A stretch of 64,000 nt of DNA from a virus (lineage: Duplodnaviria; Caudoviricetes), in IMG/VR virus record IMGVR_UViG_3300037313_001869, positions 1-64,000 of that record; one strand, written 5' to 3'. Each line of letters starts with the position of its first letter. The stretch's first letter is position 1. The notes under the pieces were generated by a model, which was not told the DNA's origin, made no database searches, and saw nothing but the letters and a program-made list of their open reading frames with translations. Position numbers and translations under genes: made by a program. Below, in pieces: positions 9,400 to 63,542 of this stretch.

Positions 9400-10203
9400 A
9401 TGCCCGACCTCGTTATCGCTCCGGAGAAGGAAGGAAAGGGCCGTAGCTTTACGGCTTCCCTGCTCTGCTCCATCAAGGCCGATGGCCTTTGGTCTGGAGG
9501 CGGCGCTACGACCGATGCGACGCGCCCGGTCTACTTCATGATCGCGACCGGGGAGGAGCAGATCCGCCCGTTCGTGACGAACCTTCAGATGGGCAAGAAA
9601 GCGATCGTCCCGACCTCGGGTTACGGGCGGCAGAAAGCCTCCTTCACGCTCGAAGTCCTGCGTTCGGCCGGCTACTCCTGGTCGTACCAGAAGACGGCGG
9701 ACGGCACGATCGCGACGGCCTACCTCGCCGATCTCTTCCGTCTCGACCCGGGCATGGTCGACCCGGACGGGATCGCGTTCGTTCTCGCCCCTCCTACGGC
9801 CTGGGTCGAGCGGTATCCTTGGGATACGCGCCCGGCGGTCGATCATGTTCTCAAGCTCGGCACCAAAGCCCAGCCCGAACAGCTCGAAAGGCTCGCCCCC
9901 CTCGCCCCTCTCTTCTGTGCCTACCTCGACAGGCGCACGCGCTGCCCTCTCTTGAAAGACGCTCGCTTCTACCTCCAGCTCATGGTGGCTTGCCTCGAAG
10001 CCGGGATCGCGAGCGTGTCAGAGGTCGAACGCTGGCACCGTCCCGAGGGCGTTGAGTGGATGATGCACTCACGCCTCGGCTACCAAGAGACGGACGTTGA
10101 AAGCGTCGGGCTCGTTCCCGGCCTCGCGTTCAAGTCTTACCACGAATCGTTCGAGCCCGTTCTTGCCGCTCAGGTCGAGCGGTTCCGCAAGGCAGGAGTC
10201 TTA
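9400..10203 (+). CDS. hypothetical protein (267 aa if TTA is a stop)
   Basis: First part of the 1539-aa ORF; in-frame TTA at 10201 lies 3 nt before an SD-preceded ATG. Confidence 0.7.
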
Positions 10204-10206
10204 CCT

Positions 10207-13200
10207 ATGGCAAGGCAAGCGAGCATCGCCGTCGCCGGCTACTACCCCTACCCGAAGCACCTGATCGCTCCGCTCGCCCGGCTCATCGAGCCCCTCGGGG
10301 GCGGGGAGCACTGCGTCTTCGACCCCTGCGCCGGGGACGGGACGGCTGCCCTTATCCTGACCGATGCCCTTTTCGACCTGAAGAACAACTACCCGCGCCC
10401 TCTCTTCTACGCGGCCGAGATGGAGGCCACGCGGGCCGACAGGCTCCAGAAGAACGTTTACGATCACCACCTCGGCGCTCGTGACAACGTGGTCTGCGGC
10501 AACGCCTTCCGGCTCCGTCTTCACCAGCGGGATAAGCAGGGGGCGACCCATCTCTTCCTGAACCCGCCCTACGAGCCGAACCGGGAGTTTGGGCGCATGG
10601 AAGAGAAGTTTCTCGTCCGCTTCGCCCCGGCTCTTCGGTCGGGCGGCGTGCTGATCTTCGTCGTGCCCTTCTACGCTCTTGCCGACTCGGCCGACACGAT
10701 CGGTCGGGAGTTCGAGAACGTGTCGTGCTTCCGCTTTCCGGGCAATGACTTCGCGGCCTTCCGTCAGGTCGTCCTGCTTGCCGTCAAGCGCCCGGGCCTC
10801 ACTGACCCCGACCCTGCGACGGCGGCCAAGGTCCGGGCGTGGTCGGCGGACTCTTCGTCGATTCCTGAGCTGCCCTTCGAGGGCAGCCCCGTTGTCTCCG
10901 TCGAGCCCGCGCCCCTTCACCGGGCGGGGTTCAATCACTTCGACATCGCCCCGATGGACCTCTCGGCCGTCCGGGGTCAGGTCCGGGCGTGGCATCAGAC
11001 GGGCCGGGACGGCCGCTTGGTGCCCGTTCCGGGCATCTTCCCTGAGGAGGGCCCGGCTGACCTCCTGGAGAGGCGCTATCCGCTCGCTGTGCCCCCGAAG
11101 CCGGCTCATATCGCCACCGGGATCGCCGCGGGCGTGTTCAACGGCGCCCGTATCGCCCCCGATGACCCGTCGTCGGGCCTCCCTGACCTGCTCGTCAAGG
11201 GCGTCTTCGATAAGGAATGGCGTAAGAAAGAAGAGAAGATCAACAAGAAAGGCGAGGTTCGGGCCATCGTCGAAGTGCAGGAGCCGAAGCTCCGCGTCAC
11301 TGTACTCAATCTGCGCACCGGTCTCTTCCATACGCTTCGGCCCGGCGTTGAAACGACGGGGGCCGATCAGGTCGCAGACTTCACGACGGCCGATCTCCTG
11401 GGCAACTACGGCAAGGGGCTGATGGACGTGCTTCTCGCTCAGTGCCCCGTTCTTCACGACCCTTCGCGGCCTGAGGATAACTTCCCCCTGCCCGCTTTCG
11501 ACCGGAAGCTCTACGCGATTCAGGAATCGGCCACCCGGGCGGCGGTCAAGCTCCTCGGAGGCGTCTCGGCCTCACGTCAGAGCCGCCGTGGCAAGGCTGC
11601 AATCCTGCTCGGCGAGACCGGGACGGGCAAGAGCACGGCGACCCTGGCCACGGCGAAGACGATCGGCGCCCGGCGTGTGCTTGTCCTCTGCCCCCCTCAC
11701 GTTGTGGCCGAGTGGGTCGGCCACCATGTGCCCGTCGTTCTGCCTGGGGTTCCGGTCATGCGCCTCGCGGACGTGGGGGACGTGCAGCGGTTCGCCGAGG
11801 ACACAACGAGCCCGATGGCCGTTGCCGTCCTCTCGCGGGAAGATGCAAAGCTCGGGCACACCTTCGAGGGTGTCACCACGGGCCGCTGCCCCCGGTGCGA
11901 CGCCCCGACCCCCTTCGAGGCTGACGATCTCGCCAAAAAGAGGGCCTGCTGCGAAGCCGTGACCCACCGCCCCGTCTCGGGGGCGAGCCGGCTCGCCTTC
12001 CGTCTCGCGTGCAAGCTCTACCCTGCTCTGCCCGAGTCGCCGGCCATTCAGCGTCTCTTCTCGGGCCGTCACCTCCGGCGCCGCCTTGCTCAGCTCGCCA
12101 CGGTCGACGGCGGGGAGAAAGCCCGGCCGGCGGCGTGGGCCCGTGTCCAGAACGACGCTGTCTTCGACGAAACGGCCGTCTACCTCTGGAACAAGCTGGT
12201 GGAGAAAGAGGACGCGAACACCGAGTCCCTCCAGCGTGCTCTCGTCCTGCTCTTCCTCGCCAACCCCGAAGCGGGAAGGCTTGCCCGGTTCTGCGTGTGG
12301 GGCTACGCCGATAGCATCCTCCGGAGCGCGAGCCCCTACGGCCCCGGGGCGAGGGCCCGCGAGACCGTGAAGGAGCTTCTCCTTCTTCTGCCCCGGGACC
12401 AGCGGCTCTCTCTCGCTTCGGAGCTTCAGGGTATGGGCGCCCAGGACGCGACCTACTGGCAGGCCACGACGTGGCGTGACTGGGCCCGGATCGAAGAGTC
12501 ACTCTCGACCGATGGCAGGGATGGTCTCGACTCCAAGGGTGAGTGGCGCGGCTGGCGCCGCGTCGGAGAAGAGATTCTGAAAGGCGCCCTCCGCCCCGGT
12601 GACCCGGCGGGCCTCTCGGAGGTGATCGACCGGCTCACGAGGATCGGCGCTTGGCAGAAAAGCGCCCCTTGCGGCGAGCCCCTCTACCAGGCCGTACCCG
12701 AGCCTCGGAAGATGCCCCTCGCCACCTACATCACCCGGCACCACAAGAACCTGTTCGATTTTCTGGTTCTTGACGAGGGGCACGAATACGCCACCGACGG
12801 CTCCGCGCAGGAAAGGGCCGCGCACCGGCTGACCTCGATGGGCGCTCCGACCATGCTTCTCTCGGGCTCCATCATGAATGGCTACGCGCAGAGCCTCTTT
12901 CCGAACCTCTGGGCCCTTCTGCCCTCGTTCCGGGAAGAGTTCGACCGGAGCGACATGCAGCGCTTCATCGACCGGTACGGCTTCCGCAAGCGCCAGGTCG
13001 AAGAGAAGGATCTGAAGACGGGTGAGGTCGTGGCCTTCGGGACCATGAGTGACCGGGTCGAGAAGACGGCGCGGCTCACCGGCAACGCGCCCGGCGTTCT
13101 GCCCCTCCTCGTGCTCAAGTACCTTCTCCGGGGCGCGATCACGATGCACAAGGAAGACCTCGCGATCGACCTGCCCCCGTGCGTCGAAAAGCAGGTTCTC

Positions 13201-39006: not shown

Positions 39007-39009
39007 GGG

Positions 39010-49495: not shown

Positions 49496-49524
49496 AAGAA
49501 TGCGAAGCCGTCTCCGTTCTGACG

Positions 49525-50012: not shown

Positions 50013-50200
50013 TTCATCCCCCAGCGCTTGCGCACCTCGGCCGGCGTGGCCCGGCCCGCGTGCAGGTCTTCGATGTCCTGGGGAGGGCCGCTGGCGACGA
50101 CCACGCTTCCCACCATCTCCCCGTCCCAGATCACCTCGACGATCAGCCGGGCCTTGTGCTCGCTCAGGCGGTCGACTTTCGTGTTTGTCGTGACGTTCAT
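50009..50200 (-). CDS. small hypothetical protein
   Basis: Coupled in minus operon. Confidence 0.7.
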   Translation of the reverse strand: MNVTTNTKVDRLSEHKARLIVEVIWDGEMVGSVVVASGPPQDIEDLHAGRATPAEVRKRWGMK

Positions 50201-50211
50201 GACGTAGCCTT

Positions 50212-50697
50212 TCAGTTGGTGAAGACGAAGCCGAGATCGGCCAGGTCGTCGAAATCGACGGGTTCGCTCGCCTTCAGGAGAGCGAGGTCTTCCTGGGCCT
50301 CTTTCACCGTGGCGTAGAACTTCGAGTAGCTCACGTCGTCGTTGCCGCAGAGGTAGAGGCAGACAGGCGTAGCCGAGGTGACAGCGTGGATGCCCGTGGG
50401 GGCCGAATGCCGGGCCTTGCGCTTCTTGCCGGGGGTATCCCGGTAGATGCTGCGCCGGGCCCGATCGGCGCTCTTGCGGTAGTAGTCGTCGTTCCGCCGG
50501 GGCAGGTCGGTACCCGTGTAGTCCGTCAGCTTGAAGAAGGCGTAGTCCCCCGGGAAGGGCCCGCCCCAGCTCGCAGCGCCCTCGCCGAAGCGGAGCATTC
50601 CGGTCTCGATGACGCCCTTTCCGTAGGTGAGACCGAGCCTCGTCAGGTAGTCCCGGTACTCATCGCCGTGGGCTTGGAGGTATTCGAGGATCGTCAT
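50212..50697 (-). CDS. hypothetical protein
   Basis: GNDD.SYSK..LGF.FTN. Confidence 0.8.
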   Translation of the reverse strand: MTILEYLQAHGDEYRDYLTRLGLTYGKGVIETGMLRFGEGAASWGGPFPGDYAFFKLTDYTGTDLPRRNDDYYRKSADRARRSIYRDTPGKKRKARHSAPTGIHAVTSATPVCLYLCGNDDVSYSKFYATVKEAQEDLALLKASEPVDFDDLADLGFVFTN

Positions 50698-50700
50698 GGG

Positions 50701-51012
50701 TCAGCCCATCCCGAAGCAAAGGACGCCCTTGGCCCACTCGGGGGCCTCATCGAGCGCCGTGATCGTGTAGTTTCCGTCCGGGTCTTCCTCGGCCTTGAAC
50801 CACCACGCCTCGGCCTCGGGCAGGATGCCGGCCATGATGCCGGGCGGCACCTTCTCGATGACCGCGTGGGTGTAGGTGTTCGACTCGAAGAAGAGGTCGG
50901 CGCCCTCGCCGCTGATGGCCGCAACGGCCTCTTCTTTCGTGGGGTACCAGCCCCAGCAGCGCGTATCGGCAGCCGTGTTGAGGGCCGTGACCGTGTAGAT
51001 GGCTGAGATCAT
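50701..51012 (-). CDS. hypothetical phage protein
   Basis: RCWGWY..DLFFE..Y..AVIEK..PG; ATGA overlap. Confidence 0.8.
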   Translation of the reverse strand: MISAIYTVTALNTAADTRCWGWYPTKEEAVAAISGEGADLFFESNTYTHAVIEKVPPGIMAGILPEAEAWWFKAEEDPDGNYTITALDEAPEWAKGVLCFGMG

Positions 51013-51314
51013 GGTTTCTGTTGTTCCCGCTCTTCTTCGAGGATGGCTTCGTGCTCGGCAGCCCGGCGTTCCACGTCCGCAACCTCTTCGGGCGACTTGG
51101 GCCAGGCGATCATGGGGTGTCCGGCCGCCTCGTTGGCGGCCCAGTACCGGCGGATCTCGTAGGCGTCGACCAGCGCCCGGCTGTACGTGTAGGCGTTCCA
51201 GGGGCAGTAGCGGCACGAGAGACCGTCGAGACCCCTCGCTCGCAGGTGATGACGTACGCCCTTCTTCTTGCAATCGGGGCATACGTCGTAGGGCCGGTGA
51301 TGGTAGGCGGTCAC
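51009..51314 (-). CDS. Zn-ribbon-like protein
   Basis: CPDC..CRYC; GTGA overlap. Confidence 0.75.
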   Translation of the reverse strand: MTAYHHRPYDVCPDCKKKGVRHHLRARGLDGLSCRYCPWNAYTYSRALVDAYEIRRYWAANEAAGHPMIAWPKSPEEVADVERRAAEHEAILEEEREQQKP

Positions 51315-51526
51315 GCCCGCTCCTTGCGCCACTTGCGGAAGTCCTTCAGCCGGTCGAGGTTCAGGATCGTCTCTTTGCGGGCTAGGAAGAAGTCCCGGCC
51401 CCGGGCGAAGAGGTAGGGCAGAGCCGCCTCGGTTTGCGCGATCATCGCGTCCAGCTCCTCGTCGGTGAGCCCGTCGCCCCTTCCGAACTTCTCCCATGCT
51501 TCGTTCATCTGCGTTTCGGTCAGCAT
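51311..51526 (-). CDS. small hypothetical protein
   Basis: GAGGAG SD; promoter motif upstream. Confidence 0.8.
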   Translation of the reverse strand: MLTETQMNEAWEKFGRGDGLTDEELDAMIAQTEAALPYLFARGRDFFLARKETILNLDRLKDFRKWRKERA

Positions 51527-51546
51527 TTCGTTTCTCCTCTCGCAGC

Positions 51547-51575
51547 CTAGACGTTTCAGGTCTTCTCTTTTTTCC
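51547..51575 (-). promoter_or_regulatory. GGAAAA-N16-CGTCTAG promoter-like element
   Basis: Exact 16-nt spacer. Confidence 0.65.
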
Positions 51576-51903
51576 CGCGACGGTGCCGAGGAACGTACGG
51601 GCCCCCAGGCAAGAGCTTGGCGAGCACCTCCGGGGCAAGCTCAACGCTGCCCGGGCGCCGTTCGAGGTTGAGCTTTCCCTCGGCCGCCGTGCAGCGCAGG
51701 CAGTCGACCGGATCGGCCAGCCCTTCGGCCGAAACGAGCGACTTGACGCCGCAGAGGGTCCGGGTCTCGCCCAGCACGAGCGAGCGGTTGCGGGTCGGGA
51801 CGACGGCCAGGTGGATGACCTCACCCCCGACCGTCGAGACCTTGGCGAGGTAGCCCTTGGCTTCGGTGTTTTCGCGATCGAGGGGTTTAGGAGAGGGGGT
51901 CAT
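51556..51903 (-). CDS. small Cys/His protein
   Basis: H..TLCG..CLRC; GGTGTC upstream. Confidence 0.75.
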   Translation of the reverse strand: MTPSPKPLDRENTEAKGYLAKVSTVGGEVIHLAVVPTRNRSLVLGETRTLCGVKSLVSAEGLADPVDCLRCTAAEGKLNLERRPGSVELAPEVLAKLLPGGPYVPRHRRGKKEKT

Positions 51904-51926
51904 GGCCCCCTCTCAGACACCGCGCC

Positions 51927-52775
51927 TCACCAGTGCAGGTGGATGTTGCCGTTCGAGAAGGTGTCGCCGATCCCGAGGAGCTTGACGACATCGGCAAGAT
52001 TCTGCGCCTTGAAGACTTCGAGCGTGCCGTAGTAGTTCGGCGAGTTGCGGATCTTCTTGGAGAGCTTGTAGGCCGCCTCACGCTGGGCCGGCGTGAGCTT
52101 GCCGCCCTCGACCTGCGCGGCCAGCTTCTTCAGGTCCTCGGCGAAGCCCTCGGCCATGGCCTTGTACTTGGCTTCCCTGGCGTCCTTCTTGGCCTGCTTG
52201 GCGTCCCGCTTGGCCTTCGCCTCGGCCGCCTTCGCGTCCCTCTTCGCCTGAGCCTCGGCCTTGGTCTGGGCGATGACCTCTTCGGTCACCTCGCGCAGAG
52301 GGCGAAGCTCCCACTTGGCCACGAGACCGTCGAGGCGCTCGACCTCGCGCCGCTGGCTCTTGGCGCTCCACTCGACCTGACGAATGGCCGATTCGAGTTC
52401 CCTGGCGTACTCCCAGTTCTCGTTGCCGGCCGCGTCGAACCGAGGCAGCTCGACATCGATCATCTCGGGGTCGCGAGCCCACACCTTCTCGCCCGGGGCC
52501 CGGCGCTTGACCGTGAGCGTCGCAGGACGGGCCTGGAGCTTGGCGAGCACCTCTTCCGTGTGCTTGAGAACCTGGACCATCATGGCCCGGTACTCATTCG
52601 TCGCCGTGAGCGACCGCTCGTAGGGTTCGTAGCCCACGGCGTAGCAGTCGCCCTCGATGGAGCCGTGGCCCGGGCGACGGTAGCCGTGGTGGACGAGCCG
52701 GCCGTCCTGGATCTTGTGATCCTGCTCGCACACGCCGCACATCCCGAGGGTCCCGATCCGAAGTTTGGTTGCCAT
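51927..52775 (-). CDS. hypothetical protein with N-terminal Zn-binding motif and coiled coil
   Basis: CGVC..HHGY.RPG..C..PYE; Ala/Lys-rich helix. Confidence 0.85.
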   Translation of the reverse strand: MATKLRIGTLGMCGVCEQDHKIQDGRLVHHGYRRPGHGSIEGDCYAVGYEPYERSLTATNEYRAMMVQVLKHTEEVLAKLQARPATLTVKRRAPGEKVWARDPEMIDVELPRFDAAGNENWEYARELESAIRQVEWSAKSQRREVERLDGLVAKWELRPLREVTEEVIAQTKAEAQAKRDAKAAEAKAKRDAKQAKKDAREAKYKAMAEGFAEDLKKLAAQVEGGKLTPAQREAAYKLSKKIRNSPNYYGTLEVFKAQNLADVVKLLGIGDTFSNGNIHLHW

Positions 52776-52780
52776 GGGCG

Positions 52781-52809
52781 CTAGACGATCGAGAGCGGGC
52801 GGATTTTCC
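52781..52809 (-). promoter_or_regulatory. GGAAAA-N16-CGTCTAG promoter-like element
   Basis: 5 nt before ATG 52775. Confidence 0.7.
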
Positions 52810-52817
52810 GAAAAAGC

Positions 52818-53063
52818 TCAGAGGGCTTCGGGGCGGTCGAACCGGGCCGGCACGGGCTCGAACTGGTAGACCTCGTGAAAGCCGAACCTCAACCACTTCT
52901 CCCGGCCGGGCTCCCGCACATGGAACGTCTCGGCCTCGGGGTCGACCCGGGCGACGAAGAGCCGCCGATCCGGCGAGTCCCTCCAACGCAGCTCGTTGTC
53001 GAGGACAAGCCAGGTCGGCGGCTTCCAGTCAGGGAAGGCTTCGCGTAGGGGCCTACGCGACAT
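52818..53063 (-). CDS. family E small protein, RF tag
   Basis: PPTWL; ends PARFDRPEAL*. Confidence 0.8.
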   Translation of the reverse strand: MSRRPLREAFPDWKPPTWLVLDNELRWRDSPDRRLFVARVDPEAETFHVREPGREKWLRFGFHEVYQFEPVPARFDRPEAL

Positions 53064-53065
53064 CG

Positions 53066-53284
53066 CTAGTTCATCCGGCGCCGGGCGGCGGCGGCGGTCT
53101 CTTTGATATGTGCCTCGAACTGATCGAGCAGCTCGGTCGAGGGCTTCTGGCCATCGAGCCGGAGCACGATTCCGTTCGGGACCAAGAAGACCTCGACCCG
53201 GTAGGGGGCGACGCCCCAGACCTTGGCGGCTTGCTTGCGACAGGCTTCTTGCTTCGCGATCAGGATTTCCTGGGTGTTCGACAT
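53066..53284 (-). CDS. small hypothetical protein
   Basis: GGAGG SD; GGAAAA-N16-CGTCC at 53323-53295. Confidence 0.75.
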   Translation of the reverse strand: MSNTQEILIAKQEACRKQAAKVWGVAPYRVEVFLVPNGIVLRLDGQKPSTELLDQFEAHIKETAAAARRRMN

Positions 53285-53333
53285 GGTTACCTCCAAGGAC
53301 GGTTGAGAGGCCGTCGATTTTCCGGCAAGATAA

Positions 53334-53867
53334 TCACTCCTGCTCGATGTACGTACCCCAGCGGGTGATGCGGGAGAAGACCACGTTGTGGAGGTACCGG
53401 GCGGCGACCTCGGGCTTTTTCTCGGCAAAAGCCCGCCGGATGGCGCTGCTCGACACGTCGCCGATACGGTTGACGAAGTGTGGGGTGGCGACCTCGCACA
53501 GCTCCTTCCACCCCTCCCACCGTGGGGCGGAGTCCCGGAGGTCGGAGCCGAGAAGGAAGAGAAACTCCGCTCCTGCGTAGCTCGGCTGAGCCCTCAGGTG
53601 CCGGACCACCCGGTGCGAAAGATGGGCCCCCGGTACCTCTGATTCGACACTCGAAACGGTTGTGAGCGGGAGGCTGTCGAAGGCCAACTTACACATGACC
53701 ATCCGATCGAAGAACGGCGAGAGCGTCTTCTTTTCGGCGTGCTCGAAGCAGGGCACGACAAGAACTTCGGTTACTGAAGGCTCGTTCAGTAGAAGCTGGG
53801 TGACCACGGCCGTGTGACCGAGGTGGGGGGGATCGAAGCTGCCTCCGTAGATCGCGATCTTGCGCAT
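53334..53867 (-). CDS. nadD: nicotinate/nicotinamide mononucleotide adenylyltransferase
   Basis: YGGSFDPPHLGH, R..M..LA, FLLGSD..W, VSSSAIR. Confidence 0.85.
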   Translation of the reverse strand: MRKIAIYGGSFDPPHLGHTAVVTQLLLNEPSVTEVLVVPCFEHAEKKTLSPFFDRMVMCKLAFDSLPLTTVSSVESEVPGAHLSHRVVRHLRAQPSYAGAEFLFLLGSDLRDSAPRWEGWKELCEVATPHFVNRIGDVSSSAIRRAFAEKKPEVAARYLHNVVFSRITRWGTYIEQE

Positions 53868-53920
53868 GGCCTTGGAGTACACCTCTCGTGAAGAGCTTGC
53901 AGAAAGGTTCGTGAGTAGGT

Positions 53921-54397
53921 ATGGTCCGAACCGACGCTCGACTGGCCCAGACTGGCCGTCTCCGTCCTGAAAAAACCATGCGGATTTACTACCCCGTCGA
54001 GGGGCCGGGGTGCCGCGTTGTCGTGAGCCAAGGCTTCATCGAGGGCTTTTGCGACGACCACCCCGGCTCCAGGCTCCAAGGTCTCGAAGGTATGCAGGTC
54101 TTCTTTGACGGCGATCTGCACATCACGAAGCTCCAGTTCCGTAACGGCACCCTTCGCCAGTGGGAGGGCCCGGACCTGGTCAGCCTCGTCAAGATGGCCC
54201 GGGAGATGGCGAGCGAACAGCCGAAGAAGGCGTCGGGCGAGCGGCCCGCGATCCGGCTCGAACCGGAGGCGCCTGCGGCCCCTCCCGAGGCTTCGTTGCC
54301 CCCGCTGCCCCCTCCGGTTGCGACGGCCCCCAAGACCGAGAGTGTCGGCCGCTACGTGGTCATCCGGAGGCGGGCAGGGTCATCGACTCGCGCGTGA
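53921..54397 (+). CDS. hypothetical protein
   Basis: GC3 bias; start 53921 or 53978. Confidence 0.7.
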   Translation: MVRTDARLAQTGRLRPEKTMRIYYPVEGPGCRVVVSQGFIEGFCDDHPGSRLQGLEGMQVFFDGDLHITKLQFRNGTLRQWEGPDLVSLVKMAREMASEQPKKASGERPAIRLEPEAPAAPPEASLPPLPPPVATAPKTESVGRYVVIRRRAGSSTRA

Positions 54398-54890
54398 CCT
54401 CGGTAGCTTCGGGGGTCAGGAGCTTTTGCAATGCCAGGAGCACGTCCTTGTCCCTTGCGCCCCGTACGTGCCAGAGCCGTGAAGAGAGGCTCTTGCCGCG
54501 CCAGGTTGCGGTCTTGACGGGGTCGGACCACGTAAGGCGCGCTTCGTAGCTGTGACCGAAGCGAAGGACTTCGAGGCGGGCTCCCTGGGCGAGGTACCGT
54601 TCGAGGTCTCCGCCCTCCCCGCCAATCCGGCTTGGCTCCCCATCGGAGAGGGCCGAGAGCCCGTTTGCGATCGTGCTCGCGGTGGCCGTCCGCATGGGCA
54701 GCTTCTCGGCGCTTGTGAGCGTCAGGAGAAGCTGCCCCTCGTGCTGGACGACCTCGACCCTACCCGCCTGGTCAAGAGCCTCGTAGAGCCCTTCTAGCTC
54801 GCGCCGGTAGAGGCGCTCGAACCGGTCTGGGCTCGTGGACGGCCCTGGCAAGTCGATGTCGAGATCGTGGTCGTAGCGGTTCTCGGGCAC
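54360..54890 (-). CDS. hypothetical protein with two N-terminal tag-like motifs
   Basis: ENRYDHD and PDRFERL in first 27 aa; GGTGTC upstream. Confidence 0.7.
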   Translation of the reverse strand: MPENRYDHDLDIDLPGPSTSPDRFERLYRRELEGLYEALDQAGRVEVVQHEGQLLLTLTSAEKLPMRTATASTIANGLSALSDGEPSRIGGEGGDLERYLAQGARLEVLRFGHSYEARLTWSDPVKTATWRGKSLSSRLWHVRGARDKDVLLALQKLLTPEATEVTRESMTLPASG

Positions 54891-54897
54891 GCCGATC

Positions 54898-55362
54898 TAA
54901 GACACCGCCTTCGTCGTCGTCCTCTTCACCCTCGGCGCTGGCTTCGCCCTCTTCGCCCTCACTTCCGCTGTTCTCGCCGGCCATGTTGAGATCGTCGAGG
55001 TCTTGCAGAAGTTCGAGAACGTGTCCGACGCCCTGCTCGTCTCGCCACATGCCCACCCACCCGACGAGGGGCACGTCGCCGCAGTCGCACTCACACATGA
55101 CGTTCTCGTCGAGGGCGAACTCGGTCTCGGCCCGGACGAAGAGAAAGGTACGGACGAGGTTGCCGTGCTTGCCGTCCTGGCAAGGCAGCATGGCCCAGAG
55201 AACGATTTTGCCCGGCTTCGACTTGTCGTCGATGTTGAAGATTTGAGCCCCGAAGGGCAGCTCCATGATCACGCGCTGGGTATCGAGGCCGACTTCGATC
55301 CCCTTGATGATGTAGCGGGGAGGGGCGAACGGGAGGTGCTCGATCGAGTGGTTGTCGCTCAC
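54898..55362 (-). CDS. hypothetical protein with acidic tail (154 aa if TTA is a stop)
   Basis: LPFGAQI..LWA..R.F; acidic tail followed by in-frame TTA; next gene starts 7 nt later. Confidence 0.75.
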
Positions 55363-55476
55363 GGATGGGCGCTCCTTGGTCTACCGAGAGCCCGGGCAAA
55401 GGAGCATTCTCGATGGGCGAGGGTCGGGCTTGCTGGCAGGCGGACCCGCGAAGATCCGGTGTAGTACGCGATCACC

Positions 55477-56415
55477 ATGCCCCGTCCGACCAACATGCCC
55501 TGCTGGGCTGTCGAAGGCGCTACCATCGAGCCGGCCTCGAACCAGGCTCAACTTCGGAACGACCACGGCCGGATCGTCTCGGCCAAACTCTATGCCGCCG
55601 AGCATCCTGGGATGGCCCTCGTGATCGACGCGGTTACCGACGAAAACCTCATCGTCCGCGTGGGCTCAAAGACCTTCACGGTGGCTTACGACACCGCCTT
55701 CTCGACGAGCTGGCGGCTCGTGGGGACCGTGCCCGAGCGGGTCCAGCCCCCGAGCTGGCTTCGCACCGGGATGGCCATTCGCTACCAGGGGGCGGCCGAG
55801 GGGCCCGCTGTCTTGCACAACGTGGGCGAGATTCGCTTGCGGGGCACGTTCCGTAACCGCTTCGGGGTCGAGCGGATCACCCGGCAGTACGTCGAGGTGA
55901 TCAACGCCGACATCGCTGGCAGTCTGCGGGCCCCTCTGACGGCCGATTTCGCGGTCAACTGGGGCCCCTGCGTCGGAGACGGTACCGCCCCGGCCCCTGC
56001 CTGGCTCCAGGAGGGCTCGTACGTGCGGCCGAAGGACAACGACGGCCAGCCGCTCAACACCTACTCGTTCCTGGTCACCGAGGTGGCGACCACGTTCTTC
56101 CGGGCGCAGCCGGTCTACAACCACGGCGTACTCGGTCCGGCCATTCAGTTCCCCATGGGGACGGCCGAGGATGCTTGGGTGCTCGCTCCCGACGACCCGA
56201 AGACGCGCCGCGACTACAAGCCTGGCATGGTCCTGCGTAGCCGGCGGACCGGGGAACTCGTCGAGATCAAGACCATCGACCCCGGCACGGGCGCCTTTAC
56301 CGTGGGCAGTCTCCGCCAGCAAATCCGTACACTTACTCCTGGGGAAGGGGAGTTCGTCCTTCAGGAGGACCAACCGGTGGAGAACGTGCCCGACCGCTTC
56401 GGGAGGATCGAGTAG
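55477..56415 (+). CDS. family E multi-repeat protein, RF tag
   Basis: PCWAVEG, PSWLRTG, PAWLQEG repeats; PDRFGRIE*. Confidence 0.85.
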   Translation: MPRPTNMPCWAVEGATIEPASNQAQLRNDHGRIVSAKLYAAEHPGMALVIDAVTDENLIVRVGSKTFTVAYDTAFSTSWRLVGTVPERVQPPSWLRTGMAIRYQGAAEGPAVLHNVGEIRLRGTFRNRFGVERITRQYVEVINADIAGSLRAPLTADFAVNWGPCVGDGTAPAPAWLQEGSYVRPKDNDGQPLNTYSFLVTEVATTFFRAQPVYNHGVLGPAIQFPMGTAEDAWVLAPDDPKTRRDYKPGMVLRSRRTGELVEIKTIDPGTGAFTVGSLRQQIRTLTPGEGEFVLQEDQPVENVPDRFGRIE

Positions 56416-57572
56416 TGCCCCCGCTTGGGTCCTGGGTTTATGAAGGGGTGTATGCCATCTCCCCCGAGGGCGCCGTTCGGTGCATCGTCAACGTCCGAGA
56501 CGACCGGTTCACCTCGGCGCCTCCGCTGACGTTCAGCTACGACCGTCGAACGCACCCGATGCTGGAGGCGGCCCGCTGGACGCCGCTCACCGCTTTCGAG
56601 GCCGAGGTCATTCGGGGCCTGTCATTTGGGCGGCATGTTCACTACAGCAACATGCCCCAAGGGGTGGGAGCCACCTTCGATCCGGTCGCTCGGATCGAGG
56701 GGGAGCTTCCGCCCTGGTACGTCGTCGGTGGCCGGTGCAGGGTGCGCGGCGACAGCCTGATGACCTACACCCTCTTCGATGCCGGTCGATCCCAGATGGC
56801 CTTTCGAGAGAACGCTGGGCCCGGGCGACTCTTTCAGTGCTCGGCGCCGGGGGCCATCCGGCTGTTCGAGGCGGTACCTGGCCCCTGGGAACGTCCCGCT
56901 ACCGAGCCCCTCTACGCGATCTCTTGGCAGAGGACTCCGCCCCCGCCCGACCCTCCGCCTGCAAACGAGCTTCTCCGGGTTGCCGACGAGGTCACCCATG
57001 TGACGAGGAAGATCCGCGTGGCGTTTGGGGTCGGGGACGACGAGAAAGAGGGGGTCACGTTGGAAGCCGAAACCGTAGCCCCGCATCCGAACTCGCCCTT
57101 TTTCAAGGGGGCGATTGTGCTAAACGACAAGGGCTACGCCTACAAGGTCGAAAACGTCGAGGTCGAGAATGGCACGCCTTCGGCCATTCTCATGTGGGAC
57201 CTCGACCGGTCTTCACTGCCCCATGCCCGGCCCTACTCGCGTCGCTACCCAATCCCTGTCCCGCTCACCTGGGCTGCGGACATGCCCGTTCCCGCGGGGC
57301 TGACCGAGGAAGACTGCTCGCTCTTCGACGAGTTGAAGACGGGGCAGGTTCTCGTGGACCTCGACTCGCGGCGTATTCTCGTGGTCGTCGGATTCCTGGT
57401 GACGGGTGACGAGAACCGGAAGACGCATTTTCTGATCGAGGAGGCAACGAAGGGCCCCGGAGAATCCAATCCCTTTCAGGTGGCCTCTGAGCCGGTTCGT
57501 TCCCGGTGGGTCGCACTTGGGCCCCATCGCAAGCCCCCGTCTCGGTTCGACCGCCTTGGGGAAGACCTCTGA
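56415..57572 (+). CDS. family E multi-domain protein, RF tag
   Basis: LPPWYVVG; ends PSRFDRLGEDL*. Confidence 0.8.
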   Translation: MPPLGSWVYEGVYAISPEGAVRCIVNVRDDRFTSAPPLTFSYDRRTHPMLEAARWTPLTAFEAEVIRGLSFGRHVHYSNMPQGVGATFDPVARIEGELPPWYVVGGRCRVRGDSLMTYTLFDAGRSQMAFRENAGPGRLFQCSAPGAIRLFEAVPGPWERPATEPLYAISWQRTPPPPDPPPANELLRVADEVTHVTRKIRVAFGVGDDEKEGVTLEAETVAPHPNSPFFKGAIVLNDKGYAYKVENVEVENGTPSAILMWDLDRSSLPHARPYSRRYPIPVPLTWAADMPVPAGLTEEDCSLFDELKTGQVLVDLDSRRILVVVGFLVTGDENRKTHFLIEEATKGPGESNPFQVASEPVRSRWVALGPHRKPPSRFDRLGEDL

Positions 57573-57955
57573 TGGAGACCCCGCTCCGTATCGGTTCGCT
57601 TCTCAAGCACAAGCAGTCCGGCGATGCCTACCTTGTGAAGGCCATCTCTGGCGTGGGTAGCTACCAGGTCGAGCGGCAAGACCCGATGCGGACGCGCTAC
57701 TGGTACCAAGTATCCCAGATCCCCGAATACTTCGAGATCATCCCCGACCCGCCTCCGTGGCTCAAGACCGGGGCGAAGATCATCGACCAGAGCAACAACC
57801 TCTTCGTGGTGAACGCGGTTCTCGGGCGACGGGTCGTTCTGCGAAGGTCTGCCGGGCGAGACGGACTTGGGGAGCTTGTCGAGACTACGCTCGACGATGT
57901 GGTGAAGGACTGCCGGCCCGTCGACTTCCGCCCTACCCGTTTCGATCGCATCTAG
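57572..57955 (+). CDS. family E protein, RF tag
   Basis: PPPWLKTG; ends PTRFDRI*. Confidence 0.85.
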   Translation: METPLRIGSLLKHKQSGDAYLVKAISGVGSYQVERQDPMRTRYWYQVSQIPEYFEIIPDPPPWLKTGAKIIDQSNNLFVVNAVLGRRVVLRRSAGRDGLGELVETTLDDVVKDCRPVDFRPTRFDRI

Positions 57956-57981
57956 CCGCTTTTGGTGTAGAGAGCTGGGCT

Positions 57982-59166
57982 ATGACACAACCGGCTACCA
58001 AGCAAAAAGCTCTCACCCCTGCTCCTCCCTGGTGGAATCACTCGCTTCTGCCGAGGCAGAACGTGATGAAGACCGGTCCCCTCGCCATGCTCCTTGGCTT
58101 CGCCGTCGCCCGCGGCGAGACGGTCTACACGGGCTCGTGCCGCGGGGTGCTCGAAGACAGTGATGAGGAGGGGCAGAAGGCGTTTCAGGACGACCTCTGC
58201 AAGATCGCAAAGGACTCCTCGGTCGTGCTCGTGGGCGGCCCGCTCTTCGGCCGTGGGGCCTACGAGACGTGGATCACCTGGGAGCGGGGCGCCATCACCC
58301 TCGAACTCGGGATGGACGGCAAGGTCAACCTGAACCTCGCGACGCTCGACGAGGACATCTACATGAAGCTCGCCGAGACCATCGGAGAGCACATGCTCCC
58401 CGAGGCGACGCGGCAGCCGGTCTACACGCTCGCGCAGGTCAACGGCGAGATGACCGTGGCCGAGCTGGGGCTCGCGGGGGCTCCGCTCGAAGCGGGTAAC
58501 TACGCCCCCGAAATCGTCGAAGACTTCAATTTCATCGTGCAGGACCTCGGCGAGAGCGTGCCGACCGGGCGCCTCGTGATCCTCGACGGCCCGCCGGGGA
58601 CGGGCAAGACCTACCTCATCCGGGGCCTCATCAACGAGGTGCTCGACGCGGTCTTCGTCGTCGTCCCGCCGCACTTCCTCCACCAGCTCACCGACCCCTC
58701 GTTCGTGCCGATGCTCCTCAAAGCCCGGGCGAACGCCGGCTCGGACAAGCCCATCGTGCTCATCCTCGAAGACGCCGATGACGCCATCCGGCTTCGCAAG
58801 GACCGCGGCAAGAACAACCAGATCGCGGCGCTCCTGAACCTCTCCGACGGCCTCATCGGCCAGGCGCTCGATCTCCGCATCGTGGCCTCGACCAACCGCA
58901 GCGTCGCCGAGATCGACCCTGCCCTTCGCCGCCCGGGGCGGCTTCTGCGGCACATGATCGTGGGCCCTCTCTCGCCCGAGCAGGCGAGCGAGGTCTACGA
59001 GCGGATCTCCGAGGGCGAAGAGGTCGAGTTCGAGGGCCCGACCACCCTCGCTCAGGTCTACGCCCACTTCAAGGGCCTCCAGCTTCTCGACGACCAGGAG
59101 GACGAAGACGAGGAGGACCTCGACGAAGATGAGGACGACGAAGATGAGGACGACGAGGACGACTTA
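57982..59166 (+). CDS. AAA+ ATPase with acidic tail (ends at TTA)
   Basis: GPPGTGKT, ILEDAD, STN, RPGR; poly-D/E tail then TTA GCC ATG. Confidence 0.85.
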
Positions 59167-59169
59167 GCC

Positions 59170-59562
59170 ATGGCGTCGTACACGGTCGCGCAGGTCTACA
59201 CGCACGAGGTAGCCGCCTGGGTCACCCTCCTTACGGCCCAGGCCGTCCCGGGGCTGCTCGAAGGGCTTCTCAAGAAGGACTACGAAGTTGCCTCCCTCTC
59301 CGAGACCCTGACCCTTCGGAGTGAGGTGAGCGCGGTCGTGGGCTTGTGGATCAAGCGTAAGGAGTCGACTGCCACGCTCGACCCCTACAAGGTCCGGGAC
59401 GATATCCAGCAAGTCTTGAATGAGGCCCGCTCGACCTTCTTCTCGATCGTCGTGGCGCACATTGGAGGGGCCGGCTGGACCGGGTCGAACCTCATCCTGC
59501 TCAAAGAGGCCCCACCCCCTCCTCCGGACGAAGACGAAGAGCCCCCGCCCCAGCTTCACTGA
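59170..59562 (+). CDS. hypothetical protein
   Basis: ATG 3 nt after TTA, GAGGA upstream; fused to the ATPase only under the standard code. Confidence 0.7.
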   Translation: MASYTVAQVYTHEVAAWVTLLTAQAVPGLLEGLLKKDYEVASLSETLTLRSEVSAVVGLWIKRKESTATLDPYKVRDDIQQVLNEARSTFFSIVVAHIGGAGWTGSNLILLKEAPPPPPDEDEEPPPQLH

Positions 59563-59840
59563 TGCGCCCCCTTAGTCCCTTTGCGATCGGACGGCGCTGG
59601 TACTCCGAACGGCCGCCCGAGGAGCGGAAACCCAACTTCGAGTTTGTGATCGTCGGTCCGGGATCGAAGCTTTACACGAAGCTCTGCCGGATCGAGATCA
59701 GCGACGAGGAGATGGCCCGCTTCCCCGAGTATTACACAGGGCAAAACGGCAACGGCACGGTCCAGGAGTATTCCCACAAGCACCTGCGGAAGTACGCAAG
59801 GCTCGTCCGGGACCGGTTCGAGAGGGTCGACGACGAATAG
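59562..59840 (+). CDS. hypothetical protein, RF tag
   Basis: TGATG coupling; DRFERVDDE*. Confidence 0.8.
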   Translation: MRPLSPFAIGRRWYSERPPEERKPNFEFVIVGPGSKLYTKLCRIEISDEEMARFPEYYTGQNGNGTVQEYSHKHLRKYARLVRDRFERVDDE

Positions 59841-59877
59841 AAAAGGCCCCGAGCGTTCTAGCGCCCGGGGCCTTTTC
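59840..59877. terminator. bidirectional intrinsic terminator
   Basis: GAAAAGGCCCCG..CGGGGCCTTTTC between convergent genes. Confidence 0.8.
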
Positions 59878-59896
59878 GCGTCTCTCGGAGAGAGGC

Positions 59897-60970
59897 TCAG
59901 TCGTTGACCAGGAAGGTCACCTTCTTGACGGCCATCCACTTGGTGCCCGGCCGGCCCGTCTCGGGGTTGCCCTTGCACACGAGCGAGGTCATGTCCCCCT
60001 CGACTTCCCGGCCCATGTTCTGATCGAGCTGCCGGCGCATGTTGAAGTCGTTCTTCACGGCGAAGGTGAGCTGCACCACGGTACCCGCCTTGGTGCGGAC
60101 CGGCAGGTCCATCTCCCCGGCCACGGTCTTGCCCATGCCGCCCCGCGCACGTTCGACGGCCGCCTTGATCTTGCCCACGATCTGGGTCATCGACAGGTCC
60201 ACGCCCTTGTCCATCGACGACTCGAACGAGACGAGCGCGTTGAGGATCTCCTTCGGCCCCACCTTCTTGGCCGGGGCGCCGCTCTTCACCGTGGCCGACC
60301 GGATCGCGTCCTGGAGGCTGATGCAGCCGTTCATCAGGTTGGTCACGAACGGGCGCAGGGGCCAGGAGTCGGGGTGCTTGCCCATGATGAGCTTGTGCGT
60401 CTTCACCGCCACGGCGAGCGCGTCCCTGTCATCCGACGACTGGGCGAGCTGCCTCAGGGTGATGAGGGTCTGGTCGAGACCGCGCTGCATCGACTTCACG
60501 AGGTCCGCCGGGAAGTCCTTGCGGAACTCTTCGAGGTCGTCGATGGCTTCGTCGAGGTCGCTGCTGTCGACGAGGAAGATCCGGCCCGGGGTCGTCCGGG
60601 TCTCCTGGAACACCTTGTCTCGCAGACCCATGAGGTACTGAAGCTCGACCGAGACCGTCTCGATGTCGTCGAACGTGAACATCTCCGACGACTCGATCCG
60701 AGACCCCAGCTCCGCCGCTTGCGATTGCAGAAGAAGAGCCTTCGGAGGCACTTCGTTGCCCCTGTCCTGGTGGTCTTCGACCTCGTCGGTGAGGGTGCTC
60801 AGGAAGCGCTTGTAGCTCTTTTCGAGGTTGTCCAGATGGGTGAAGAGCTTCGCGACGCTCTCGCACTGCTTCTGGATGTTCATGAGCGAGAGCATCACCT
60901 GTCGGGCTTCGCCCCCTTCTTGGAAGGACCGAACCGAGCGAGAAGACGTGCGATCGTAGCTGTAGGCCAT
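59897..60970 (-). CDS. hypothetical helical protein, possible virion protein
   Basis: 357 aa; begins MAYSYDRT. Confidence 0.85.
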   Translation of the reverse strand: MAYSYDRTSSRSVRSFQEGGEARQVMLSLMNIQKQCESVAKLFTHLDNLEKSYKRFLSTLTDEVEDHQDRGNEVPPKALLLQSQAAELGSRIESSEMFTFDDIETVSVELQYLMGLRDKVFQETRTTPGRIFLVDSSDLDEAIDDLEEFRKDFPADLVKSMQRGLDQTLITLRQLAQSSDDRDALAVAVKTHKLIMGKHPDSWPLRPFVTNLMNGCISLQDAIRSATVKSGAPAKKVGPKEILNALVSFESSMDKGVDLSMTQIVGKIKAAVERARGGMGKTVAGEMDLPVRTKAGTVVQLTFAVKNDFNMRRQLDQNMGREVEGDMTSLVCKGNPETGRPGTKWMAVKKVTFLVND

Positions 60971-61029
60971 CGGGTTCCTGAGCGCAGGGGGGAAGGTCTA
61001 GGTACCCAGGCCCGGTGTATAAGAAGCCT

Positions 61030-61413
61030 ATGGCAAACGCCCAAACCTCCCATCAAGAGTGCATCGCCCTCCTCAACCTTCTTCGGGACGCAATCCACGA
61101 CAACGCCCGAGCCAAGGGCTTTCAGGACCCGCCCCAGGACCTTCAGACGATGGGCATGAACACCATCGGCGAGATCCTGGAGCAGTGGGAGTCGTACCGG
61201 GCCGGCACGCTCGACCAACCGTGCGACAAGACCGAGAAGATGATGGCCCTCTTCGGCGAGACCCTGACCAACCAGGAAGAAGAGGCGGCCGATCAGCTCA
61301 TCCGAGTGCTCGACATGTGCGGCCGGTTCGGCATCGACATCAGCCGAGCCGTTCGGGTGAAGATGGCCTACAACAGCACCCGACCTCAGCGCCACGGGGG
61401 CAAGCGAGCCTGA
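61030..61413 (+). CDS. MazG-like nucleotide pyrophosphohydrolase
   Basis: GEILE..E, EEEAAD..IRVLD, KMAYN..RP..HGGK. Confidence 0.8.
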   Translation: MANAQTSHQECIALLNLLRDAIHDNARAKGFQDPPQDLQTMGMNTIGEILEQWESYRAGTLDQPCDKTEKMMALFGETLTNQEEEAADQLIRVLDMCGRFGIDISRAVRVKMAYNSTRPQRHGGKRA

Positions 61414-61432
61414 CTCCGGTGTAGAAGAGCGG

Positions 61433-61545
61433 GACGGCCCGCGAGTAAGCCCTCCGGGTTAGGGACCACTGTGCTCACCTCTGTGGATGGTCCCCTGGGG
61501 GTCGGCCGGCTGGCCCGGAGGGCTTTTTCGCGGGCCGTCTTGTTT
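61433..61545 (+). ncRNA. candidate structured small RNA (~110 nt)
   Basis: GGTGTA at 61418 with no ORF; nested perfect stems 61433-44/61528-39, 61447-58/61514-25, 61462-68/61488-94. Confidence 0.6.
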
Positions 61546-61852
61546 AGAACGGCACGTCGGCAAGATCGTAGGAACCGTCGGACCGAGCCTCCGCGGGGCC
61601 CTCGTTCATGATGGCCTCGCGCTCGTCCCGGTCCACCCGCCAGTCGGGACCGTACATGTAATCCCAGAACTTCTCGATGCTCCCACACCGTCCCGATCCG
61701 CGACGGTGTGGGAAGTGGTACCGGGAGCAGAAGCACGGTTTGCGGTCTTCCCGGACTTTCCGCATCCACCGGCAGAGAGGCCGCGCCGGCCGGCAGCCTG
61801 AGACGTGCTTCGTGGGTCGGCAGAGTATCCGGGAGATCGGGCGGCGAGCCAT
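61544..61852 (-). CDS. Cys/His-rich phage protein
   Basis: CFC..YHFPHR.GSG.C. Confidence 0.7.
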   Translation of the reverse strand: MARRPISRILCRPTKHVSGCRPARPLCRWMRKVREDRKPCFCSRYHFPHRRGSGRCGSIEKFWDYMYGPDWRVDRDEREAIMNEGPAEARSDGSYDLADVPF

Positions 61853-61892
61853 GCTTACTAGACCCCGAAAAGAACTCTCGCGAGGAGAAAAC

Positions 61893-62240
61893 ATGTTCGA
61901 CGAAGAACCCGAAGTGCGGACGTTCCTTCCGAGCGCCGAGGTCAAGGCCGAGGTCCTGCGCCAGCTCGCCGAGTTCGAGGCGCTCTACCGGACCCCGAAT
62001 CCTTGGATGAAAGAGGGCCAGCCGGTCCGGCACAAGCTCTATGAGCGTTACGGCGTCATCGCGGCCGTGGGCAACCTCGGATGCCGGATCGACAAGCTCG
62101 TCTACCGGGGAGAGAGGGGGCTTTTCGATCCGCCCTTTGCTCTCTCCGTCTCGCTCGCCGAGGTAGCTATCTGCTGGGAGCCCTACGACCCTTCGGAGCT
62201 GGGCTCGCGGTTCGACAAAGCCTGCCGCGACGGCCTCTTA
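61893..62240 (+). CDS. family E protein, RF tag (ends at TTA)
   Basis: GAGGAG SD; NPWMKEG; SRFDKACRDGL then TTA, complement of the convergent TAA. Confidence 0.75.
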
Positions 62241-62492
62241 GTCCTTGCGGCCGGCCAGGTACTCGAACGCTTCGCGCGAGAAGTCGATCATCTTGGCGAT
62301 GGCCTCGACCCGGGCCTCGTCCGAAGGTGGCTGGGTCTGCCAAGAGGCAAAGAGCCCAGCGAGGGCAAGAGCCCGGCCAGCGAGGTAATCCCCTCGGGCT
62401 GAGTGACGATCGCTCAGCCGATGGGCCAGCTCCTCGGCGCTCGTCCGAAAGAGATCGAACGAACGAGATGGTCGGTTCGAGTCCACGTTCAC
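62238..62492 (-). CDS. small hypothetical protein
   Basis: Ends TAA; start uncertain. Confidence 0.6.
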   Translation of the reverse strand: MNVDSNRPSRSFDLFRTSAEELAHRLSDRHSARGDYLAGRALALAGLFASWQTQPPSDEARVEAIAKMIDFSREAFEYLAGRKD

Positions 62493-62529
62493 CTGAACTG
62501 CATGAGTGCTTTCGGTGTAAGCACCTCTC

Positions 62530-62823
62530 GTGCCCCCCACCGATCGATCCAAGCTCTCCGCCCTTCTCGACTCGCAAAAGCTGACGCCCGACGAGGAGCG
62601 GGCGTTTCGCGACATGATGGACCAGCTTGAAGCTGGCGGCGTGGCGCGGCTCTCGACCAAACAGCGGGAGTGGGTCGACCGCGTCTACCACAAGCTCCAG
62701 CTCGACGCCGAGGAGGGGTCAGCGAACCTCTTCTCCTCGGGCAAGGTCAAGAAGACCGGCAAGGAGACGGTCTACCCCTGGGAAACGGGGCCCAAGCCGC
62801 TCAAGCCGCCGGGCCGGTCTTGA
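62530..62823 (+). CDS. hypothetical phage protein
   Basis: GGTGTA at 62514; E..AF..M..LS.KQ..W..PLKPPG. Confidence 0.8.
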   Translation: MPPTDRSKLSALLDSQKLTPDEERAFRDMMDQLEAGGVARLSTKQREWVDRVYHKLQLDAEEGSANLFSSGKVKKTGKETVYPWETGPKPLKPPGRS

Positions 62824-63031
62824 TCGCCTGCATCATGCGCTGGGACATGCTCTCGATCCGCTTGGTCAGGGCAGCCATGACCCCGTCGAGATCCCCTTCC
62901 GCCTCGGCGAGCACCACCCCCGCGACCTGAACCGACCCCGTGTAGAGCCCGCCCTCCTTGCCATGGAGCCGAAGTTCTGCTTGCGGGGTGATGGCTCGGA
63001 TGGCTTCGCACAGGCGTGAGAGAGAGTACAT
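62801..63031 (-). CDS. small hypothetical protein
   Basis: AAGGAG SD; MYSLSRLCEAIR. Confidence 0.7.
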   Translation of the reverse strand: MYSLSRLCEAIRAITPQAELRLHGKEGGLYTGSVQVAGVVLAEAEGDLDGVMAALTKRIESMSQRMMQAIKTGPAA

Positions 63032-63101
63032 GCTTGCTCCTTTTCCCGGGGGTCTGCTGATAAGTGCCTTCCCCGCCGGGAAAACCCTACCATCTTGACA
63101 A

Positions 63102-63542
63102 ATGGAAGTCATGCCTGACTCGAACTCTCCCCCAGCGCCCCCGACGGTACCCCTGGACGAGCCCATCGAAGCATCGTGGGCCACGGCCAAGCAGAGCAAG
63201 GTTCCGCACCTCGACCGTGAGGCGCTGAAGAAGTTCGTGCTCGACTTTCTCGACGGGCGCATCTTCGTGAGCGCGGAAGTCCGGGAGATGTCGCTCTTGC
63301 CGAACATCTTCATGCCCATTGCCTTCGGTGCCCTCGCGGGCTTTACCGAGGAGGACACGAAGGAGGTGGGACTGATCTGGGAGTACCTCGACCGGGCCGG
63401 ACCCCGGGCCATCAACGGCTACCCGATCTTCTCGTCGTGCCGCATCATGCACCGGGACGACTGGGAGAAAGCACACGCAGCCATCAGCAAGGAGATCGAC
63501 CGGCGCAAGGCCGCCGAGGCATCGATCCTGGAGGACCTTTTA
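63102..63542 (+). CDS. conserved hypothetical protein (ends at TTA 63540 or TGA 63560)
   Basis: IFMP..FG, WEY..AGPRAINGYPIF.S. Confidence 0.8.

Follow-up and report, generated by a model that had tools for sequence, protein, structure and literature searches.

TTA as a probable fourth stop codon in a complete 435-kb phage genome from soil

Does a bacteriophage in soil end some of its proteins at a leucine codon? The question is raised by the first 64,000 bases of the virus record IMGVR_UViG_3300037313_001869 (hereafter the window), for which a sequence-only reading had claimed that TTA closes nine genes, occurs nowhere inside a gene and is used as a stop in addition to TAA, TAG and TGA. The window belongs to a complete phage genome of 435,218 bp with direct terminal repeats, which comes from soil and has a GC content of 64–66% throughout (65% overall), and it is this whole genome, about seven times the sequence of the window, that was tested here. 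Its genes include those for a portal, a head-maturation-protease-like protein, RecA, HolB (holB) and ClpP, and a major capsid gene can be putatively assigned via a syntenic relative. We consider it very likely that TTA is a fourth terminator beside TAA, TAG and TGA in this phage, a reading that is supported by coding potential, gene density, the ends of orthologs, the starts of homologs and the tag of a transfer-messenger RNA (tmRNA).

Under translation table 11, gene calling over about 125,000 codons leaves 49 in-frame TTA genome-wide, 26 of which (53%) lie no more than 40 codons from the stop of their open reading frame (ORF), against a baseline of 18.5%; their median relative position in the ORF is 0.90. 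In these genes, TTA in the two remaining frames stays at baseline (20–22%), and other rare codons (ATA, CTA, TCA and AGT) are distributed normally, unlike TTA; the sequence-only reading had noted internal occurrences of two of them. UUG is an ordinary leucine codon here, with about 548 evenly placed uses. AGA is enriched toward 3′ ends as well (35% within 40 codons of the gene end), which we do not take as a signal; it probably derives from the GGAGA-type ribosome-binding site of the next gene. When the same pipeline was run on 209 kb of a bacterial genome with 62% GC, 72 in-frame TTA were found in an even spread, 12 of them within 40 codons of a stop. Even if the A/G ratio at third positions is taken from the codon pair in which it is lowest, 26 or more sense TTA would be expected in the phage, and none with continuous coding flanks was observed. 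Conserved domains had been named as the place where a leucine TTA should be sought, and no Pfam domain extends across a TTA in any of the searched ORFs.

The coding score is positive ahead of nearly every in-frame TTA. Past the codon it becomes negative, moves to another frame (at five TTATG overlaps) or resumes after an ATG within 10 codons; every in-frame TTA with downstream coding potential has an ATG within that distance, and these restart ATGs are mostly preceded by GGAG. Terminator-like hairpins follow directly on some TTA (103237 and 355074). With TTA added to the three canonical stops, genes end in TGA (403), TAG (90), TTA (71) and TAA (65), i.e., about 11% of genes close with TTA. Coding potential around the 71 terminal TTA falls from 0.49 before to −0.57 after the codon, and mean scores past the canonical stops are −0.75 (TGA), −0.55 (TAG) and −0.42 (TAA). 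A comparison of coding density under the two codes, which had been proposed as a check, came out in favor of the four-stop model: callable density went up to 0.885 (0.847 under table 11), the summed score gained about 3,700, some 50 additional genes were called, and about 4% more coding sequence was recovered. Control runs with CTA, ATA, AGA or TCA as a stop gave no gain in density. Directly after the 71 terminal TTA stands mostly G or C (G 41%, C 37%, T 18%, A 4%); a +1 slip that would bring TAG or TAA into frame is thereby ruled out as an explanation, as had been argued for TAG from the nine window sites.

The junctions between convergent genes add a signal of a different kind. A reverse-complementary pair of stop codons exists only if TTA is a stop (TTA/TAA), and 15 convergent gene pairs, about 29% of convergent junctions, overlap by exactly these three bases. 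The codon-aligned antisense frame is nearly stop-free in a high-GC genome, so that under table 11 these ORFs extend by 50–300 codons.

All nine TTA described for the window are present on the strands assigned to them. The caller with TTA as stop returned precisely the same nine TTA-ended genes, and the window genes called under table 11 hold no other in-frame TTA. Three of the nine sites are convergent TTA/TAA overlaps, as had been recognized. On the minus strand, TTA 34102–34100 closes a 180-amino-acid (aa) gene (34100–34642) and shares its bases with the TAA of a plus-strand ORF (33752–34102); in-frame coding potential is 0.81 upstream and 0.28 downstream, where the frame is antisense to the convergent gene. 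TTA 40138–40136, also on the minus strand, closes a 149-aa gene (40136–40585) and shares its bases with the TAA of the plus-strand gene 39626–40138; under table 11 the frame extends as a 990-aa ORF (37682–40654) with no Pfam match. On the plus strand, TTA 62238–62240 closes a 115-aa gene (61893–62240) and shares its bases with the TAA of the minus-strand ORF 62238–62660, coding potential being 0.32 upstream and −0.34 downstream in frame.

At three further sites, a second gene begins in the same frame. TTA 10201–10203 (plus strand) closes a 267-aa gene (9400–10203), and two codons past it, at ATG 10207, begins the gene of a DUF6094 methyltransferase–SNF2 helicase. The table-11 ORF spanning this TTA has 1539 aa, and its Pfam matches begin downstream of the codon. 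Met1 of the homolog P0004 (1273 aa, 47% identity; MARPEAVAVGGYY) aligns with ATG 10207 (MARQASIAVAGYY), which is residue 270 of the table-11 ORF, and more than 100 homologs of this methyltransferase-helicase, about 1250–1300 aa in length, match the 1539-aa ORF only downstream of TTA. The database copy of the protein has 1539 aa instead of about 1270. Several of the homologs (P0005, P0040, P0054, P0061, P0074 and P0093) are 300–400 aa longer and carry intein/Hint domains, of which the protein of this phage has none. Outside the window, at TTA 328911, matches to bacterial DUF4419 homologs are confined to the downstream part; true fusions among homologs, which would have spoken for read-through, are thus seen at neither 10201 nor 328911. 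TTA 49527–49525 (minus strand) closes a 94-aa gene (49525–49809), which is followed, past a low-coding spacer, by the gene of an SNF2 helicase in the same frame; in the fused table-11 ORF, residue 269 is where the SNF2 and Helicase_C domains begin. TTA 59164–59166 (plus strand) closes a 367-aa AAA ATPase with an acidic tail (58063–59166; AAA domain at residues 172–300), after which GCC ATG opens a 130-aa gene in the same frame.

Three sites remain. TTA 54900–54898 (minus strand) closes a 154-aa gene (54898–55362), and the next gene starts at 54890. The table-11 version of this ORF overlaps that gene by 118 nucleotides (nt) and is therefore dropped by the table-11 caller. TTA 30093–30091 (minus strand) closes a 70-aa HicA-like gene (30091–30303) in the four-stop gene call, with a weak HicA_toxin match at residues 10–50 that is below Pfam's cut-off (E 4e-4). 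TTA 63540–63542 (plus strand) closes a 146-aa gene (63102–63542) in a TTATG stop/start overlap with a TGA six codons later. Coding potential shifts frame after this TTA (f0 −1.12, f2 +0.22), and we agree with its earlier ranking as the weakest single site.

For comparison with orthologs, dozens of related huge-phage contigs were available, with protein identities of 38–69% and GC contents of 47–65%. These relatives carry TTA inside genes, aligned with leucine in this phage. Opposite its terminal TTA they have a canonical stop in 70 of 82 ortholog alignments (85%; TGA 48, TAA 14, TAG 8), and the corresponding value for control genes ending in TGA is 78%, so that the homolog C-termini, to which the sequence-only reading had pointed as a check, agree with it. 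In four genes of the head module, the first stop of the relatives is at offset 0 from TTA in 39 of 39 (a 189-aa gene), 19 of 22, 8 of 15 and 4 of 4 cases, and TGA-ended control genes show the same offset behavior. In a 1284-aa gene the orthologs have a canonical stop aligned with TTA, and the overlapping ATG that comes next is the same; the sequence of the relatives that BLAST aligns beyond this TTA is full of stops. The nearest relatives (≤64% identity) have TTA mid-gene and only canonical stops, which confines the trait, as sampled, to the lineage of this phage. No closer relative with the same code was found in viral, metagenome and protein collections, in which small high-GC relatives are too poor in TTA to judge. 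The trait appears to be young, given that TTA is still leucine in the nearest relatives sampled.

Evidence that is independent of protein-gene calling comes from the tmRNA, a one-piece, oversized molecule of 528 nt encoded at genome positions 269,912–270,439 on the minus strand (Rfam tmRNA, 78.8 bits, E 2e-29), which ARAGORN did not detect on the whole genome. Its tag frame, GCG AAC GAC AAC TTC GCC GCC TCG CCG GCC CTC GCG GCC TTA, encodes ANDNFAASPALAA and is closed by TTA. Read with table 11, the tag extends into LEDTRPG and buries the C-terminal LAA. As a tag frame cannot use tmRNA for its own release, this site favors true termination over stall-and-rescue. At a distance of 3.6 kb from the tmRNA there is a ClpP gene (273,998–274,615, plus strand; Pfam CLP_protease, E 5e-27), and the phage may supply its own tag-and-degrade pair.

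The phage encodes 46 tRNAs, 44 identified by ARAGORN and two more by Rfam. Its leucine tRNAs have the anticodons CAA, GAG and CAG. ARAGORN found neither tRNA-Leu(UAA) nor tRNA-Leu(UAG) in the phage, a lax run returned only noise, and UAA is absent among all 46 tRNAs including the Rfam finds, which for the phage answers the suggestion that this tRNA be searched for. A leucine tRNA with C34 is what a system needs to decode UUG while leaving UUA, and the presence of tRNA-Leu(CAA) together with the absence of tRNA-Leu(UAA) in the phage fits a code in which UUA is a stop. The set also contains an amber-suppressor-type tRNA(CUA) (331,929–332,021, minus strand; Rfam 58 bits), which is Leu- or Tyr-like and has U33, A37, a long variable arm, A73 and an encoded CCA. 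Recoding of TAG was considered and rejected: past TAG, coding potential disappears or sets in again at an ATG, and in the portal gene TAG lies opposite stops of relatives. The two genes found only by Rfam are a type-II tRNA with anticodon GCU (Ser; L121:14106–14190, minus strand) and a tRNA-like gene with the loop CCUACAA, the Val-like anticodon UAC and C33 in place of U33 (L120:3963–4034, minus strand). Within the tRNA gene array are also genes for a SET-domain protein (L121:13493–13981, plus strand) and an AlkB-like 2OG-Fe(II) oxygenase (L121:8130–8753, minus strand).

Taken as a mechanism, these observations suggest that UUA in infected cells would not be decoded as leucine and would mark the end of proteins in about 11% of the phage genes, as an equivalent of TAA, TAG and TGA. 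This would be genuine termination of the release-factor type, because the frame of the tmRNA tag cannot itself depend on rescue. No class I release factor is recognizable in the phage, and the factor would therefore most likely come from the host, presumably a high-GC soil bacterium that no longer decodes UUA as leucine. By organelle precedent, an altered release factor 2 (RF2) is the candidate agent. As to where the code resides, we offer only a tentative answer, to which we would give somewhat less than even weight: either the host is an undescribed soil bacterium with a four-stop code and an altered release factor, or the phage rewires termination during infection. With respect to the latter, the virion-side genes end almost exclusively in TGA, TAA or TTA, a set that may be served by an RF2 with relaxed reading of the second base.

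Several points weigh against such a four-stop code. Termination is deduced here from sequence alone, and the gene calls were made with a home-made, self-trained in-frame hexamer caller. The phage has no recognizable factor for termination at UUA; RF-1/PCRF, eRF1, ArfB, Pth, SmpB and RtcB domains were not found in it, nor was a GGQHVN-type motif, so that the search for RF1/RF2 and ArfB/Pth that had been called for came back empty in the phage. No bacterium with TTA as a stop was found either. About 186,000 species genomes were scanned with a DNA pattern for RF2 with Ala or Gly, Cys variants not being covered, in place of the serine of the SPF motif. The scan retrieved two singleton species, Pseudomonas sp. 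286 with a GPF variant (L338:914–970) and a metagenome-assembled genome (MAG) of Oscillospiraceae with an APF variant (L339:1402–1458); in the MAG, TTA is still an ordinary sense codon. No bacterial lineage with this organelle-type change was seen in these genomes. Tags of the form ANDNFA...ALAA that end in TAA, TGA or TTA occur at 80 loci of the same genomes, nearly all in Alphaproteobacteria, and their stops are TAA or TGA in 80 of 80 cases and TTA in none, which speaks against this code in bacterial hosts. Finally, TTA is unevenly spread along the phage genome, which a constitutive host code does not predict.

Searches for the host itself returned little. RecA had no relative in the species genomes, ClpP and the head protease matched only other huge phages at up to 64% identity, and the 3′ end of the tmRNA had matches across many phyla. 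In a BLAST search of the tmRNA against 300 genomes each of Alphaproteobacteria and Planctomycetota, only short matches were obtained. Most of the nearest bacterial DUF4419 homologs come from Planctomycetota, but at no more than 48% identity they are too distant to point to a host. The alphaproteobacterial type of the tag is only a hint to the host.

Two alternatives to release-factor-type termination deserve weight, although we regard both as unlikely. According to the first, UUA is an unassigned ("hungry") codon, for which no tRNA is available; the ribosome would stall, and the peptide would be freed by rescue (ArfA/RF2, ArfB or drop-off plus Pth) or by an ordinary RF2 acting slowly on a near-cognate codon, with no change in release-factor specificity. 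In a high-GC setting UUA is very rare and depends on a single tRNA, and a codon without a tRNA halts translation. Unassigned codons have been described for the high-GC Micrococcus luteus and, in the case of CGG, for Mycoplasma capricolum. These precedents, the lack of both tRNA-Leu(UAA) and a release factor in the phage, and the failure to find a bacterial clade with an altered SPF motif in RF2 all lend themselves to this explanation. However, TTA ends 11 of the 23 genes at 200–220 kb, i.e., highly expressed genes of the head module, where slow rescue would be costly. Rescue by tmRNA would mark the products for degradation and would be circular at the tmRNA tag, which is itself closed by TTA. 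The stop-like statistics of TTA are, moreover, on par with those of the canonical stops.

The second alternative, which we hold to be about equally improbable, is a rule imposed by the phage on a host with the standard code: an unrecognized phage factor would remove or block tRNA-Leu(UAA) and enable release at UUA, such that middle and late genes use TTA and early genes avoid it. It is the uneven use of stops that speaks for this explanation. Of about 97 genes at 360–402 kb about one ends in TTA, and the first 30 kb likewise have one TTA-ended gene among about 55. In the virion-side block at 120–262 kb it ends 22 of 109 genes, compared with 9 of 210 in the small-gene blocks (360–435 kb plus 1–30 kb; Fisher p 1e-5), and TAG shows the opposite pattern with 6 of 109 versus 43 of 210 genes (p 3e-4). 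In 20-kb bins, the share of TAG is 20–30% of genes at 1–20 and 360–400 kb and about 6% at 120–262 kb. One possible reading of these figures is a temporal rule, by which late genes would end in TGA, TAA or TTA, all servable by an RF2-type factor, and shun TAG because the phage's own suppressor tRNA would read it through. The amber-suppressor-type tRNA(CUA) and the near-complete tRNA set would also suit a phage that imposes its own rule. On the other hand, early and late regions were assigned only from gene size, position and content; no candidate factor was identified in the phage; and sense TTA is absent from the early-like blocks as well, where a host with the standard code would read it harmlessly.

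Far less probable, and in our view already close to refuted, is that TTA is an ordinary but very rare leucine codon, in which case the extensions and fusions would be real or subject to conditional read-through as with bldA. TTA is rare in any genome of 65% GC, the nearest relatives decode it as leucine, and some of the tails that it cuts off are only 1–6 codons long. Yet interior sense TTA are absent where at least 26 are expected and where the bacterial control with 62% GC has them evenly spread, 15 genes would extend antisense into their convergent neighbors by 50–300 codons, homologs are unfused and orthologs stop exactly at TTA, and the tmRNA tag would no longer end in LAA. The bldA-like variant, raised as an alternative by the sequence-only reading, is poorly supported because TTA does not occur inside any coding region.

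Errors at the level of reads, which were to be checked, were addressed with the Logan contigs of the two soil metagenome runs in which the genome is present (depths of about 31 and 9). The contigs match the window at 49001–64000 (those of the second run span only 49379–53380 and 57429–64000) with zero differences and no variant letters, and the sites at 49525 and 59164 are identical in contigs of both runs. The two runs may be the source samples of the record, and their agreement hence excludes a one-off assembly error but does not give independent support. That TAA or TGA was miscalled as TTA by sequencing or assembly is scarcely credible, as the contigs agree and errors are blind to reading frame, whereas out-of-frame TTA show no positional bias.

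Fourth-stop use of TTA remains the reading that we prefer, and it has practical and conceptual consequences. Under table 11, about 70 of the encoded proteins are predicted wrongly, as fusions, with extensions or not at all. With one gene in nine ending in UUA, a bacterial-type ribosome would have to terminate efficiently at a leucine codon in soil. A literature search returned no paper on sense-to-stop reassignment in a phage or bacterium, in agreement with the sequence-only reading, which knew of no such case; the code changes reported for phages are all stop-to-sense, and the recorded sense-to-stop changes are all in organelles. A soil bacterium with a four-stop code, if it exists, would be the first case of sense-to-stop reassignment in a free-living cell. 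Questions that become testable are how a release factor gains recognition of a pyrimidine at the second codon position, whether there are bacteria that use such a code, and whether an incompatible code restricts host range and gene exchange.

Among known systems in which TTA has a special role, Streptomyces with bldA has the codon inside regulatory genes, where it is decoded as leucine, in contrast to the phage, none of whose genes has an internal TTA. The unassigned codons of Micrococcus and Mycoplasma are merely avoided, whereas TTA is used 71 times here, at positions where orthologs stop. Recoded phages reassign TAG to Gln or TGA to Trp (10.1101/2021.08.26.457843; PMC9523058). The phage resembles them in its non-standard code, in its many tRNAs including one of the suppressor type, and in the difference in stop usage between early-like and late-like genes. 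It differs in the direction of the change, which is from stop to sense in those phages and from sense to stop here, in its continued use of TAG as a stop and in having no release-factor gene of its own. Closer parallels are found in organelles. In the mitochondria of Pycnococcus (Pseudoscourfieldia) and Marsupiomonadales, both UUA and UUG are stops, which is attributed to an altered mtRF1a (PMC12574857); the change likewise turns leucine codons into stops and is documented by the same kind of evidence, but UUG remains leucine in the phage. UUA alone is a stop in the mitochondria of Labyrinthulea/Thraustochytrium (NCBI table 23), according to the passage of PMC12574857 that cites Zihala et al. 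2020, and in peDinoflagellate plastids, which in 2025 were called the first sense-to-stop change outside mitochondria (PMC12574857). Termination at UUA is attributed there to RF2 proteins (mtRF2a, pRF2) in which Ser204 is replaced by Ala, Gly or Cys (PMC12574857). The phage shares with these organelles the leucine-to-stop change of the same codon with canonical stops kept, the confinement of TTA to 3′ ends where homologs stop, the resolution of apparent fusions and the lack of a cognate tRNA gene, which for the phage refers to its own 46 tRNAs. What sets it apart is the setting: the organelles combine small genomes with a Ser204-substituted RF2, whereas here the same codon would end proteins in a 435-kb, high-GC phage that relies on bacterial translation and carries no release factor of its own.

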